Shown piece after piece: positions 12,877 to 47,193 of a stretch of DNA of 64,000 bases (positions are counted from its first letter, which is position 1; each line of letters begins with the position of its first letter). The DNA lies in contig JANXYU010000031.1 in the NCBI GenBank assembly GCA_025355855.1, forward strand, positions 1,530-65,529. The letters run 5' to 3'. Both the position numbers and the translations under genes were made by a program. Below the pieces are notes generated by a model. The model made no database searches. It saw only the letters and a list, made by a program, of their open reading frames with translations, and was not told where the DNA came from. The DNA is from Actinomycetota bacterium. GTDB lineage: Bacteria; Actinomycetota; JAHEXW01.

Positions 12877-12937
12877 GTAGCTGCCGGTCTTTAAGACCGG
12901 CAGACGAGCCGGTGTCGACCCTAAAGACGACACCTAC
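12877..12937. repeat. Convergent REP doublet: class A on + (12877-12903) and class B-like on - (12911-12937)
   Basis: GTAG-CTGCCGGTC-TTTAA-GACCGGCAG on +, and GTAG-GTGTCG-N10-CGACAC on -. Confidence 0.8.
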
Positions 12938-32643: not shown

Positions 32644-32789
32644 AGTGCTGTAGTGCTTTACAGCGCTACAGTGTTGCTTGCTAAAGCGCTTTACCGCCTT
32701 AGCGCACCAAAGCGCTCCGCCAACTCAATCCCCAATAGTAAAAGGTTGCCAGCTCGTCGCATCACTTCAGCGCTACGTAGCGCTGAAGT
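32644..32789. repeat. Cluster of AGYGCT-core palindromes and short repeats
   Basis: Five AGCGCT sites, a perfect 26-bp palindrome at 32764-32789, a 12-bp palindrome at 32682-32693 and a 10-bp hairpin at 32648-32671. Confidence 0.75.
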
Positions 32790-42327: not shown

Positions 42328-44925
42328 TTACGCGCCGCAGCATTTCTTGTATTTCTTACCGCTGCCGCAAGGACATGGATCGTTTCGGCCGACGCGGGGT
42401 GCGCTGCTGCCCGGCGGAGGCGATGACTTACGCCGTTTTTCCGGCTCAGGTGAATCCAGCGACGGTCCGCTCTCGGCGACGGCGCGCAATACCGGTTGCC
42501 GCGCTTCCACCGGCTCGGCCTCCGATATCTCCACGTGGAAGACAAGCCGCACAAAATCGTCCTTAACCGAATCCACCATCGCCGCGAAGATGCGGAAGCC
42601 TTCATTCTTGTACTCAACTAGAGGATCCCTCTGACCGATGGCGCGCAGGCCGATGCCTTCGCGCAGGTAGTCCATCTCATAGAGGTGCTCACGCCAGTGG
42701 TTATCGATGACGCTCAGCATGATGATACGCTCCAGACGGCGCATCATATCAGCCCCGATTTCTTCTTCTTTCTTCGCATAGGCGGCGTGGGCGTCTTCCA
42801 GGAATGTTACGGTAATGCCCTCAGGCGCCTCGGTTAGGGGATCGACGTCATCGGCCCCCAGGGAAACGGGATATAGCTGCTCCATATAGGTAAAGAGGCC
42901 GGCCATGTCCCATTCTTCCGGGTGAATGTCGCGATTGACGAACATCGCGACCGAACCTGTTATGATCTCCTCGATCGCCTCGTCAACATGCTTGCGAATA
43001 TCGAGTCCATCCAGGATCTCGTCGCGCTCGTCGTAAATCAAGGAGCGTTGGGTATTCATCACGTCGTCGTATTCCAGGACGTGTTTACGGATCCCGAAGT
43101 TTTGCTGTTCCACTTGTTTCTGAGCGGTTTCAATCGCCCTATTGATCAAGGGATGCTCGATCGGCACATCGTCGGGAAAGTTCATCCGCTCCATCAGCCC
43201 GGCAATCCGGTCGCGCGCGAACAGGCGCATCAAGTCGTCCTCGAGACTGATGTAGAAACGGGTCGAGCCATGGTCGCCTTGCCGTCCCGCCCGGCCGCGC
43301 AGCTGATTGTCGATTCGCCGCGCCTCATGCCGCTCCGTACCCAGGACGTGCAGACCGCCGATATCGGCGACTCCGTCACCCAGAATGATGTCGACGCCGC
43401 GGCCGGCCATGTTGGTGGCGATGGTCACGGCGCCTCTCTGGCCGGCGCCCTCGATGATGTGTGCCTCACGCTCGTGTTGCTTCGCGTTCAAAACCTCGTG
43501 CTTTACCCCTCGCTTAGACAGAAGCCTGCTTAGGACCTCACTTTTTTCGATTGAGATGGTGCCGACCAGCACAGGCTGGCCGTTCTCATTTCGCTCCGCG
43601 ATGTCTTCGATAACCGCGTTGAATTTGGCTTCCTCGTTGCGATAGATAAGGTCGGCCAGATCTTGGCGGATCAAGGGCCGGTTCGGCGGGATGATGACGG
43701 TTTCCAGCTTATAGGTGTGCAGGAACTCGTCCGCTTCGGTGGCCGCCGTACCGGTCATGCCGGCCAGCTTGTCATAGAGACGGAAATAATTCTGAATGGT
43801 GATCGTCGCCAGCGTTTGGTTTTCCTCTTTGACCGGCACGTTCTCTTTGGCTTCTATGGCTTGATGCAGACCCTCGCTGTAGCGCCGTCCTTCCATCAAG
43901 CGGCCTGTGAACTCGTCGACGATGATAACTTCGCCGTCCTTCACGATATAGTCTTTGTCGTTTTTAAACAGCGCGTGAGCGCGCAGAGCTTGATTGAGAT
44001 GATGCACCAATCCGGTGTTGGCGAAATCATAGAGATTATCGACATTCAGCTCGTCCTCGACCCGGGCCACACCTGCTTCCTTGATGGAGACGGTTTGGGT
44101 CTTCTCATCAACCTCGTAATCCTCGCCTTTCTTTAGGCCTGGAACCAGTCGTGCGAACTGGCGATAGGTTTGGGCGGCTTGCTCGGGCGCGCCAGAGATG
44201 ATGAGCGGCGTGCGCGCCTCGTCTATAAGAATGCTGTCGACCTCGTCAACTATGGCGAAATCGTGGCTACGCTGGACCTTTTCCTCTACCGAAGTCGCCA
44301 TATTATCCCGCAAATAATCGAATCCGAACTCAGAGTTAGTACCGCACGTGATGTCCGCTTGATAGGCCTCGTCACGATAGATGGGACGCAGCATCTCCAG
44401 ACTCTCATCTGGGTTTTCGAAGCTCGGGTCCAGCAAGAACGCCGAGTCGTGCTGCAGCACTGAGACTTTCAGGCCCAGGAAATGGTACAGCGGACCCATC
44501 CACTGCACATCGCGTTTGGCCAGGTAATCGTTGACGGTTACAATGTGGACGCCGGCGCCGCCCAAGGCATTAAGGTAAACCGGCAATGTGGCGACCAGCG
44601 TCTTGCCCTCGCCCGTTTTCATTTCAGAGATCTTGCCCTGGTGCAAAACGACGCCACCCATGATCTGAACGTCGAAGTGGCGCATATCCAAGACGCGCCG
44701 TGACGCCTCCCGCACGACCGCGAAGGCCTCGGGCATGATGTCGTCTAGCGTCTCGCCGGCGGCCAAGCGAGTCTTGAACTCATGGGTTTTCGCCGCTAAT
44801 TCCGCGTCGCTTAAAGGGGAGATAGCCGGTTCGTGTGACCCAACCGCCTCGACCCGCGTTTCCAGGTCTTTAATCTGCTTGGCCTCGCCAAAGCGCAACA
44901 TTTTTTCAAGTCGTTTAAAAGCCAA
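42328..44925 (-). CDS. secA: Preprotein translocase subunit SecA
   Basis: [32 protein letters not shown] and the C-terminal SEC-C motif [21 protein letters not shown] start at 44925 follows GAGGT. Confidence 0.99.
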
Positions 44926-44995
44926 AACATACCTCTTTAACGTGTCTGACAATGCCTTTCAGTATATCATAGGGGTTAAGTCAGCTGACCCCGGG

Positions 44996-45287
44996 CCGAC
45001 TGCCGGTCTAAAGACCGGCAGCTACATCAAGCAATACCGACCCATGCTTGGATGGCGCGCTGTTGACGCGGATCTGGGTTCCATGTAGGCGCCAACCTTC
45101 AGGTCGGCGCCCGTGTCCGACTGCCGGTCTAAAGACCGGCAGCTACATCAAGCAATACCGACCCATGCTTGGATGGCGCGCTGTTGACGCGGATCTGGGT
45201 TCCATGTAGGCGCCAACCTTCAGGTTAACGCGGGTCTGGTTCCATGTAGGCGCCAACCTTCAGGTCGGCGCCCGTGTGCGACTGCCG
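44996..45287. repeat. BIME/REPIN-like array: 121-bp tandem unit with alternating inverted class A and class B GTAG-REPs
   Basis: A(-) 45000-45025, B(+) 45085-45110, A(-) 45121-45146, truncated B(+) 45206-45226, B(+) 45246-45271. The unit repeats at 44996 and 45117. Confidence 0.9.
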
Positions 45288-45295
45288 CTTAATGC

Positions 45296-45754
45296 CTAAC
45301 AATCGCAATAATCCCTATCTGATACCCACGAATAGGCATAATTGGTTTCATCTTGGACCAACCCACGCCGGACCGGGTTGTGTAGGATGTAGTCAGTCAC
45401 TCCCGCCAAACTCTCTTCTTTCCGAAGAATATGATCATAAAAGCTTCGTTGCCATAACCGCTTGTGTCGGCGCAGTTGGAACCAAAACTCACTCATTTGC
45501 TTAAACAGCCGGACGAATGCGCGTAAGTCAGCAACATTTTTTACCGTGCTCACCAACAAGTGCGCGTGTTCGGGCATTAAGCAATATGCGATTACTTCGA
45601 ATCCCGTAGCCTCAGCGCTCCTGGTAAGACAGGTTCGAATCATGCAGGCAACGTCGTCCGCAACAATCAACTTTTGTCCGTCGCAACAGCATGGCGTTAT
45701 TGAGTATGCATTCGCGCCAATATAACTATCCTCATCCAATCTGTTTTTTGTCAT
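45296..45754 (-). mobile_element. REP-associated tyrosine transposase (RAYT, HUH/Y1 family)
   Basis: AYSIT, YCLMPEHAHLL (HUH), LWQRSFYDHILR and YILHNPVRRGLV (catalytic Tyr, NP). REPs flank it on both sides. Confidence 0.92.
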
Positions 45755-45781
45755 ATATATCCTTACTTTATGTTGGTCGAG

Positions 45782-45807
45782 CTGCCGGTCTAAAGACCGG
45801 TAGCTAT
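45782..45807 (-). repeat. Degenerate class A REP upstream of the RAYT
   Basis: Minus strand reads ATAG-CTACCGGTC-TTTA-GACCGGCAG. Confidence 0.75.
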
Positions 45808-45835: not shown

Positions 45836-46576
45836 TCATTTGACCATGCTGACTATCAGAGGACCGGCGCTCAGGAGGATAAACGCCGGCAGAATCATGA
45901 AGACCAAGGGAAACAGCATTTTGACCGGCAGTTTCTGCGCCTCCGCTCGAACGGCCGCTGCCTGCTTGCCTCGCAGATTGGTGGCCATGTCTCGCAGGGG
46001 ACGGCCCAGCGGTTGGCCAAAGCGCTCGGCATCCGCCAGCAACTCGACAAAACGAGCGAAATCGCGTGACGGCGTCTGTGCGGCCGCCTGCGCTAAGGCC
46101 TGGCGCCGGGGCACTCCCAGATTGATCGCAGCTATGGCGGTATCTAGAGACATTCGCAACGGCCCCCCGCAATCCTCAACGGCGCGCGGCAAAGCCAGCG
46201 TCGGGCTTAAGCCCGCCGTCGTCATAACCGCCAGCAGTTCCGCCAAACGCGGCAACTCTGCGTCGATTGCCTGGCTGGCTTTGGCTCTGGCCGCCTTGAC
46301 GGCCAGCTCCGGCAGCAGCGTGGCAAGATAATACAAGGGAATCGTCGCCAAAACCCCGACCACGACGGGAAATACTACCAGAGCGGCAGCGCCGGCCACT
46401 ACACCGCAGGCGCGTTTGGCTCTATCAAAATCAGTCTCATTGAGGCTGTCCGCGTCGCCCTGCCCCGTCACCTGGCCGGCCAAGGCCCACGTGCTCGGCG
46501 TCGGCGCGACCGGCAACCAGTCAGGCAGATATCCACCCAGCGTAGCCAGCCCCGACCAGACATTGACGGTCAGCAT
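45836..46576 (-). CDS. TadC-like type II secretion system F family protein
   Basis: IDAELPRLAELLAV..AGLS, ERFGQPL, AEAQKLPVKMLFPLVFMILPA. Start chosen at the ATG overlapping the tadB stop; the ORF track start is 46657. Confidence 0.85.
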   Translation of the reverse strand: MLTVNVWSGLATLGGYLPDWLPVAPTPSTWALAGQVTGQGDADSLNETDFDRAKRACGVVAGAAALVVFPVVVGVLATIPLYYLATLLPELAVKAARAKASQAIDAELPRLAELLAVMTTAGLSPTLALPRAVEDCGGPLRMSLDTAIAAINLGVPRRQALAQAAAQTPSRDFARFVELLADAERFGQPLGRPLRDMATNLRGKQAAAVRAEAQKLPVKMLFPLVFMILPAFILLSAGPLIVSMVK

Positions 46577-47193
46577 AGGCGCTCCGGCGCCGCCAACCAG
46601 CGCAAGATCGCGTACCCGCCGCAATCCAGCGCCAGACCGAGGCCAACTATCAGCCACCCCATCGGGGTCCGCAGGGCCGCCTGCCCGCCGCCCCCCGGAA
46701 AAAAAAGCCAGAAACCAACCGGCAGAACCCCTAATACAACCGCTGAAAAGCGCGCCTGTGCAGTCAAAGACTCGATCTCTCGCCGCATGGCCAGTCGGCC
46801 CAAGGAGACTGTCGCCAACGAATCCAAAGCGGCGGCCGCATCCCCACCTTGCCGTAAAGCTACGCCCAAGACTGCGGCGGCGCTAGCCGCGTCACGCGTA
46901 TCCGCTCGATCCGCCAAACCGCGCAGCGTTTCATCGATAGACAAGCCGGCTGACAGTTCACCCGCGGCCAAAGCCAATTCTCCCGCCAGCGGACCCGAGA
47001 GGCGCCCCGCCGCCTCGCCCAAGATTTGCCTAATGGACCAACCAGCCCGCAAGGCCATCCCGCAGAACCGCAGAAACTCGGGCAGCTCTTCCTCTATTCC
47101 GCGGCGTCGGTCGGCCGTTCGACGAGAGTGAGATAGGCGCGCCCATAAGAGCCGGGCCGCGCTGAGCGCCTGCACTGTTGTCGGGTTAAACAT
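46570..47193 (-). CDS. TadB-like type II secretion system F family protein
   Basis: EELPEFL..ALRAGWS, QGGDAAAALDSLA, LTAQARFSA. Start chosen at the ATG overlapping the tadA stop. Confidence 0.8.
   Translation of the reverse strand: MFNPTTVQALSAARLLWARLSHSRRTADRRRGIEEELPEFLRFCGMALRAGWSIRQILGEAAGRLSGPLAGELALAAGELSAGLSIDETLRGLADRADTRDAASAAAVLGVALRQGGDAAAALDSLATVSLGRLAMRREIESLTAQARFSAVVLGVLPVGFWLFFPGGGGQAALRTPMGWLIVGLGLALDCGGYAILRWLAAPERLC

Follow-up and report, generated by a model that had tools for sequence, protein, structure and literature searches.

The RAYT gene and the array beside it

The locus lies in a stretch of 64,000 nucleotides (the window) from contig JANXYU010000031.1 of a metagenome-assembled genome (MAG) of 1.34 Mb, which consists of 35 contigs, has 55% G+C and is 91% complete. 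A RAYT (TnpA-REP) gene is found there between a tad-type T2SSF gene and secA, accompanied by REP hairpins headed by GTAG that fall into two classes, A and B (Table 1). RAYT is encoded on the minus strand, which places the array 3' of the gene, between RAYT and secA. Read along the RAYT strand, the order is T2SSF, a degenerate class A REP, a ribosome-binding site, RAYT, an A stump, B', a broken B', a 65-nt linker, A, a 10-nt spacer, B', another 65-nt linker, A and the secA leader. The degenerate copy lies 28 nt upstream of the RAYT start and has lost its GTAG, and the first complete REP downstream of RAYT is inverted with respect to it. Neither a REP inside the RAYT coding sequence nor an in-frame embedded RAYT was found at the locus, and no Rfam family was found to cover the region.

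Table 1. Positions of the RAYT locus features and of the other REPs in the window (window coordinates; C1 coordinates are given in the last column where available).
Feature	Position	Strand	Basis or detail
Dispersed REP, A-like core	194-219	minus	covariance model (C1:1723-1748)
Dispersed tail-to-tail REP pair	12877-12903 and 12912-12937	plus and minus	covariance model (C1:14406-14432 plus, C1:14441-14466 minus)
Dispersed class A REP, TTCA loop	32594-32619	minus	pattern and covariance model
secA, conserved downstream neighbour marking the fixed RAYT position	42328-44952	minus	
121-bp tandem unit, A - 10 nt - B' - 65 nt	44996-45225		TRF: 1.9 copies, 100% matches
Class A REP, last of the array, before the secA leader	45000-45025	minus	
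Class B REP, GTAG on the plus strand	45085-45110	plus	one A-C mismatch
Class A REP, GTAG-CTGCCGGTC-TTTA-GACCGGCAG	45121-45146	minus	
40-bp internal duplication, junction in class B REP loop	45183-45265		TRF: 2.0 copies, 93% matches
Class B REP, 3' arm replaced at the 40-bp duplication junction	45206-45231	plus	covariance model, 20.4 bits
Class B REP, GTAG-GCGCCAACC-TTCA-GGTCGGCGC, inverted relative to RAYT	45246-45271	plus	one A-C mismatch
Stump (6-8 nt) of a third class A REP, CGGCAG plus spacer, abutting the RAYT stop codon	45280-45287	minus	direct reading
RAYT (TnpA-REP) gene, 152 aa	45296-45754	minus	HUH H63/H65, Tyr122 and Y-x3-NPV-x-x-G intact
Degenerate class A REP, ATAG-CTACCGGTC-TTTA-GACCGGCAG (ATAG, CTACC)	45782-45807	minus	37.9 bits
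tad-type T2SSF gene, conserved upstream neighbour	45836-46657	minus	

Across its 2.x units the array alternates between A and B', with linkers of 10 nt and 65 nt; the A copy starting at 45121 is the tail-to-tail partner of the B copy starting at 45085, with a spacer of 10 nt. These A and B copies are also the commonest A and B sequences genome-wide, and the class A and class B hairpin patterns are expected 0.07 and 0.00 times in shuffled sequence. The two copies of the 40-bp duplication differ at three positions whereas the 121-bp copies are identical, which implies at least two duplication events, the last presumably recent, and the 40-bp duplication appears to be the older. In the closest sequenced relative (G001, the congener), the array 3' of RAYT is a single B'-65 nt-A unit; the window genome has this unit twice, plus the A stump and the inner 40-bp duplication. 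Judged by this comparison, the array would have expanded after the split from the nearest sequenced species. The system would be active, and the expansion recent, on the grounds of selection, turnover and the 100% identity of the copies. An earlier note on this DNA had described a nearly exact 121-bp repeat with a re-duplication of about 40 bp, an array in expansion and a BIME-like architecture. TRF recovers both repeats, the congener has one B..A unit to set against more than two here, and the two subtypes do alternate in tandem with regular linkers, though with no sequence homology to the Y/Z REPs or linkers of E. coli.

The gene and the REPs could be real and the array nonetheless a product of replication slippage, unequal recombination or faulty assembly, in which case present RAYT activity is not indicated. 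The 40-bp junction lies at a GT.G.CGC microhomology within a hairpin loop and not at GTAG, the exact duplication of 121 bp leaves the tandem phase indeterminate, and in a MAG of this kind the copy number of an exact 121-bp tandem could be an assembly error. Against this, the repeated stretch of 109 bp is resolvable by common k-mer sizes and paired reads, and BIME-like clusters exist away from the gene, at C27:17379-17485 (A-B'-A) and C23:30186-30396. REP occupancy also differs between the congeners in both directions, and RAYT is under purifying selection with its catalytic residues intact (see below). An origin of this sort is possible, though less likely than not. The junction between RAYT and the array was not found by an exact-word scan of JGI metagenomes.

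The 152-aa protein matches Pfam Y1_Tnp (E = 1e-9). It passes the NCBIfam equivalog model REP_Tyr_transpos (NF047646) with 97.2 bits against a cut-off of 80, and fails the transpos_IS200 model (NF033573) with 24.1 bits against a cut-off of 55. The closest solved structure by sequence is E. coli TnpA-REP (4ER8, E = 4e-8), while IS200/IS605 transposases match at E values of 1e-3 or worse. H63, H65, Tyr122 and the N126-P127-x-R129 that follows the tyrosine are all invariant in an alignment of 24 relatives. The AlphaFold model (pLDDT 91.6) has 4ER8 as its top PDB fold match, with TM scores of 0.78/0.72 and an rmsd of 2.5 A over 142 columns; the TnpAs of ISDra2 and IS608 reach a TM of only about 0.57, with an rmsd of 5.6-8.5 A. 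The claim of an intact HUH/Y1 RAYT is thus upheld by the RAYT HMM, the fold and the invariant catalytic residues.

A RAYT phylogeny had been proposed in the earlier note as a check. We built a quick maximum-likelihood tree that included E. coli RayT, seven genuine IS200 TnpAs of the same phylum and longer Y1 proteins. A branch with an SH-aLRT support of 100 splits the IS200 TnpAs from all other proteins in the tree, the window protein and E. coli RayT among them. The tree also held four mis-framed long junk branches (IS200_G113b, IS200_G079b, IS200_G093 and long_G019b), which are to be disregarded; RAYT is separated from IS200 on the evidence of the remaining seven IS200 rows.

These results bear on the alternative that the element is an autonomous IS200/IS605-type insertion sequence and the "REPs" its subterminal hairpins. 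The Pfam match would suit such an element, as would the hairpins on both sides of the gene and the G+C content of RAYT, which is 47% compared with 57-64% in its neighbours (and 46% in the congener as well) despite long residence at the site. The IS200 model score, however, is far under the cut-off, and both the tree and the fold side with TnpA-REP. There is one copy of this type of RAYT in the genome and no tnpB; the other Y1 gene encodes a protein only 28% identical and has different ends. The chromosomal site is common to three lineages, and about 34 of the hairpins lie far from the gene. This alternative is already contradicted, and we give it almost no credence.

REPs and other repeats across the genome

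REPs were counted genome-wide in two ways. A strict pattern (GTAG, a 9-bp stem with at least eight pairs and a TYNA loop) gave 31 matches and none in 10 shuffles, and a covariance model gave about 41 REPs in 22 clusters on nine contigs. These replaced a loose regular expression, which had 244 matches against about 190 in shuffles; an early hairpin scan (stem of at least 7, offsets 0-2), where background was as high as signal, was dropped. Twenty of the 22 clusters are outside ORFs, in a crude ORF set covering 90% of the genome. The covariance model finds four related copies elsewhere in the window (Table 1), where the earlier note had claimed at least four, and the genome-wide count that it had suggested returns some 40 copies, which occur well beyond the ends of elements.

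The hairpins comprise 23 distinct sequences, whose apical cores are of two types: A (GGTC..GACC) and B (RRCC..GGTC). The two REP classes that had been claimed are present as hairpins at the locus, but genome-wide they are two types of apical core and not two fixed sequences. Compensatory changes occur at six of the nine stem pairs and the GTAG and C-TT-N-A-G tip are nearly invariant; because the hairpin set was chosen for pairing, only the covariation is informative. The commonest unit is a tail-to-tail pair with a spacer of 4-13 nt, and all ten clear pairs combine an A core with a B core, the latter usually with one mismatch. Since their A and B stems are not alike, the A+B pairs have, as single-stranded DNA, a minimum-energy fold of two separate hairpins and not one long hairpin.

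Most clusters are 14-80 nt from the flanking ORFs and between co-directional genes, where mRNA hairpins could act, and such roles are known for the REPs of E. coli (PMC3733652, PMC6006769). One could suppose that the hairpins serve the host in regulation, as terminators, as stabilisers of mRNA or as sites bound by proteins, and that an unrelated relic transposase lies among them by coincidence. In the flanks scanned by eye, however, no T-run was seen after the hairpins. The combination of GTAG and a C-TTYA-G tip is conserved beside RAYTs of this clade in many phyla, and the REP variant tracks the RAYT lineage, as described below. We consider this explanation improbable, and a role in the host would in any case be compatible with spread driven by RAYT.

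In several genomes of the order, inspection by eye often shows short tandem motifs of 7-9 nt immediately beyond the GTAG end of a REP, such as CTCGTAC-TCTTCGTAC-TCCTAGTAC at C1:1760-1800 (window about 230-270) and, in G003, TTCTCGT three times and CTTGCTT twice. Similar motifs at REP heads were noted, again by eye, at loci L109, L110, L098 and L104.

The genome holds other repeats as well. A perfect palindrome of 26-28 bp, ACTTCAGCGCTAC-GTAGCGCTGAAGT, has 27 copies with at most one mismatch in the 18-nt core, of which 21 are outside ORFs and one is in the window at 32768-32785 (C1:34297-34314); the congener has one copy and G002, of the same family, has three. Some copies are in tandem (C20:33139, 33189), and many have flanks that are variable yet mutually complementary, as if these copies had entered the tips of hairpins already in place. 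The whole looks like a species-specific burst. We considered whether the 28-bp palindrome with a central CTAC-GTAG (palC) might be a third REP class but think it unlikely: its GTAG has no hairpin on the 3' side, and the congener, with an orthologous RAYT, has almost no copies. Another palindrome, TTACTCCATTTAAATGGAGTAA, occurs in eight copies (including C8:1-40 and C30:1-30), twice exactly at contig ends, and so probably breaks the assembly.

The second Y1 gene (C4:24893-25907; loci L001 and L013) encodes 292 aa, with a RAYT-like N-terminal domain that scores 83.5 bits on the RAYT model and a C-terminal tail resembling a helix-turn-helix. The gene lies between copies, three in all, of a 29-nt inverted repeat, ATGTTAAGATACAAGACGTGACCCCTTGG, of which two degenerate solo copies are found elsewhere, and near-identical proteins occur in G002. 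This gene resembles the published "TIR-associated" tyrosine transposases.

Conservation and turnover among relatives

The best named relatives of the SecA protein are Actinomycetota, with Ca. Subteraquimicrobiales at 64% followed by Ca. Hakubella, Rubrobacteridae and Thermoleophilia, which agrees with the actinobacterial host proposed in the earlier note. The closest RAYT homologue (77% identity) is that of the congener, assembly GCA_023251915.1, a member of the same genus whose SecA is 97% identical. Its gene order is T2SSF-RAYT-secA-prfB, and REPs of class A and class B are on both sides of RAYT. The next homologue (49% identity) is on ENA contig L142 (SecA 75%), again between T2SSF and secA, and is flanked by three copies of its own lineage REP, GTAGGGGGTGACCTTTAGGTCGCCCC. 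The three RAYTs form one clade with a support of 95-99. Between the window genome and the congener, RAYT has a dN/dS of 0.08, with a dN of 0.18 compared with 0.16 in the neighbouring T2SSF and a dS near saturation. In a relative with 81% SecA identity, T2SSF and secA are 55 bp apart with no RAYT between them, which means either a loss or more than one entry. Going by synteny and substitution rates, RAYT is single-copy, chromosomally fixed, vertically inherited and under purifying selection.

The public gene call for the L142 RAYT (198 aa) begins inside the upstream REPs (L142 3001-3150), so that its N-terminus, with GRGGPSGPP repeated, is translated hairpin DNA. The true start is probably about 45 codons later.

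When 15 REP sites of the congener were mapped onto the window genome, three were shared, at least four were empty there, with only 2-28 bp between the flanks, and the rest were ambiguous. In the opposite direction, at least three of nine sites of the window genome are empty in the congener and one more is probably empty; at C27:31195, for example, the congener has 5 bp where the window genome has 76 bp. In one neighbourhood the two genomes have a REP pair in different, adjacent spacers. When JGI metagenomes were scanned with the class A 26-mer, a single contig matched; it comes from a third relative and has a class A REP where the site of the window genome is empty. Comparison of these sites indicates that REP occupancy has changed in both lineages, but the boundaries between filled and empty sites are unclean and the intergenic DNA has diverged (dS about 0.9), so that gain is indistinguishable from loss. 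The indels at the compared sites are larger than a REP pair, and exact insertion boundaries and target sites are undefinable.

Across 41 genomes of the phylum, the REP model has 35 matches in the window genome, 25 in the congener, 18 in G003, 23 in G004 and none in the other 37. These four genomes belong to one order, and all have genes that pass the RAYT model. The short RAYT of G003 is 38% identical to that of the window, adjoins rnpB and is bracketed by inverted copies of its own REP, GTAGC(A/C)GCCGACCTTTAGGTCGGC. G004 has REPs of the window family and four genes that pass the RAYT model, but these reach only about 29% identity to the window RAYT. In G002 we found neither window-family REPs nor a RAYT orthologue; its Y1 genes are of the long type only, with 26-30% identity, and are flanked by other palindromes. 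The REP variant shifts in step with the RAYT lineage in G003 and L142. A GACC-TTTA-GGTC core is found in G003, G004 and L142, and from this shared core class B is probably ancestral and class A an innovation of the window genus.

In both G003 and G004, a RAYT-type gene is about 165-180 nt from the RNase P RNA (Rfam RF00010, 319 and 302 bits), at L003 907-1337 (G003, short type) and L004 936-1321 (G004, long type). This suggests that the vicinity of the RNase P RNA is a second recurrent docking site for RAYT-type genes.

We also surveyed 80 loci of the wider clade, with RAYTs 32-45% identical, from Acidobacteriota, Dehalococcoidia, Ignavibacteria, Planctomycetota and others. Hairpins headed by GTAG are beside the RAYT in 41 of the 80. 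There are 115 such hairpins; most control tetramers give 5-25, and TAGG, whose sequence overlaps GTAGG, gives 52. With the 80 loci taken at full length, the C-TTYA-G tip is present in 72/174 GTAG hairpins and in 19/281 controls, and in eight of the 14 testable loci the two orientations have different apical stems. Both the architecture and the use of two classes therefore characterise the clade as a whole, not this genome in particular.

The locus as a probable REPtron and its known counterparts

Taken together, the locus is very probably a REPtron, in which a fixed RAYT is embedded in copies of its cognate GTAG hairpins, including a BIME-2-like array that formed after the split from the congener. 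If it works like E. coli TnpA-REP, the HUH/Tyr enzyme would bind the REP hairpin on single-stranded DNA, reading the 5' GTAG and probably also the invariant C-TTYA-G tip. The strand would then be cut and rejoined, so that REPs, mostly as tail-to-tail A+B pairs, are cut out of extragenic DNA, inserted into it or multiplied there, while the RAYT gene itself stays put. Class B, with its GACC..GGTC core, would be ancestral in the order and class A a genus-specific derivative that arose via compensatory transitions. In the 121-bp repeats, the unit A-10 nt-B'-65 nt would have been amplified in tandem in the manner of BIME-2. Catalysis on the window REPs, present activity and the part of the enzyme, as opposed to slippage, in making the array are inferred. 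Several observations count against the REPtron reading: besides the nature of the assembly and the unclean boundaries of filled and empty sites, these are the low identity of the RAYT-model genes of G004, G002 with neither REPs nor an orthologue, the relative with no RAYT between T2SSF and secA, the loss of GTAG from the REP upstream of the gene, and the number of REPs, since about 40 is few next to classic REP hosts.

One further hypothesis is that the array beside RAYT is the source of new REP pairs, with the A-B' unit amplified in tandem by the enzyme, through cutting and rejoining at GTAG sites, and then seeded elsewhere. The enzymes of this clade, found in eight phyla or more, would recognise just GTAG and the C-TTYA-G tip; the stems would be left to drift, and a second stem class would avoid long perfect palindromes. 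The derivation of class A from an ancestral B type would be one example. We think this hypothesis rather unlikely.

In its significance, the locus is a REPtron of the canonical type, with repeats that resemble BIMEs, in a lineage new for such systems, the Actinomycetota; it extends the range of these systems and adds no new principle. Heterodimeric REP pairs are published, a PGAP model already names such proteins, and the architecture of GTAG and TTYA loop is known or recurrent across phyla. What it provides is a documented, complete GTAG-REP/RAYT system in Actinomycetota, in the very small 1.3-Mb genome of an uncultured, deep-branching host. The three syntenic RAYTs with diverging REPs, together with one empty site, make a small natural series for the co-evolution of enzyme and hairpin, and the C-TTYA-G tip, shared across the clade, suggests a rule of recognition that can be tested. 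Text searches of main texts in a limited set of literature found no report that links RAYTs or GTAG REPs to Actinobacteria.

The REPtron of E. coli K-12 (RayT/TnpA-REP, yafM, b0228, 4ER8) is the best match of the window protein in both sequence and structure. The two share the Y-x3-NPV-x-x-G that follows the catalytic tyrosine, the 5' GTAG of the hairpins, two REP subtypes (Y and Z in E. coli) that alternate in orientation, and a tandem array beside a single-copy gene. Unlike the E. coli system, the RAYT here has 152 aa and not 165, at 23% identity, the REP stems and TTYA loop are unrelated in sequence, the pairs are compact (spacers of 4-13 nt), and there are about 40 copies and not several hundred; the host, a deep-branching actinobacterium, has a genome of 1.3 Mb.

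The main text of a survey of the GTAG REP superfamily describes elements with a GTAG head, a 6-9-bp stem, a short loop and an associated tyrosine transposase gene, for which 24 family consensus sequences are published (PMC3733652). For GTAG repeats that text names Proteobacteria, Cyanobacteria, Chloroflexi and PVC; Actinobacteria are absent from it. Tail-to-tail dimers made from two stem variants, as seen here, are described there too, and the preference for heterodimers is suggested to protect from palindrome-cleaving enzymes (PMC3733652).

The REPIN-RAYT systems of Pseudomonas and Enterobacteria (PMC3116915, PMC5581495) likewise have a single-copy RAYT at a conserved extragenic site, vertically inherited and under purifying selection, with a REP doublet as the repeated unit and copies that turn over between relatives. 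The doublets here differ in that their minimum-energy fold is two hairpins and not one long one, and their population is far smaller. The TnpAs of the IS200/IS605 family (IS608, ISDra2) share the HUH/Y1 core and, as predicted for the enzyme here, the recognition of hairpins on single strands. The window protein is set apart from them by the family HMM score, the TM of about 0.57, the separate clade, the single copy, the missing tnpB and the hairpins dispersed without the gene. The locus fits the REPtron concept (PMC6006769), the GTAG superfamily with its tail-to-tail heterodimers (PMC3733652) and the domesticated RAYT (PMC5581495).
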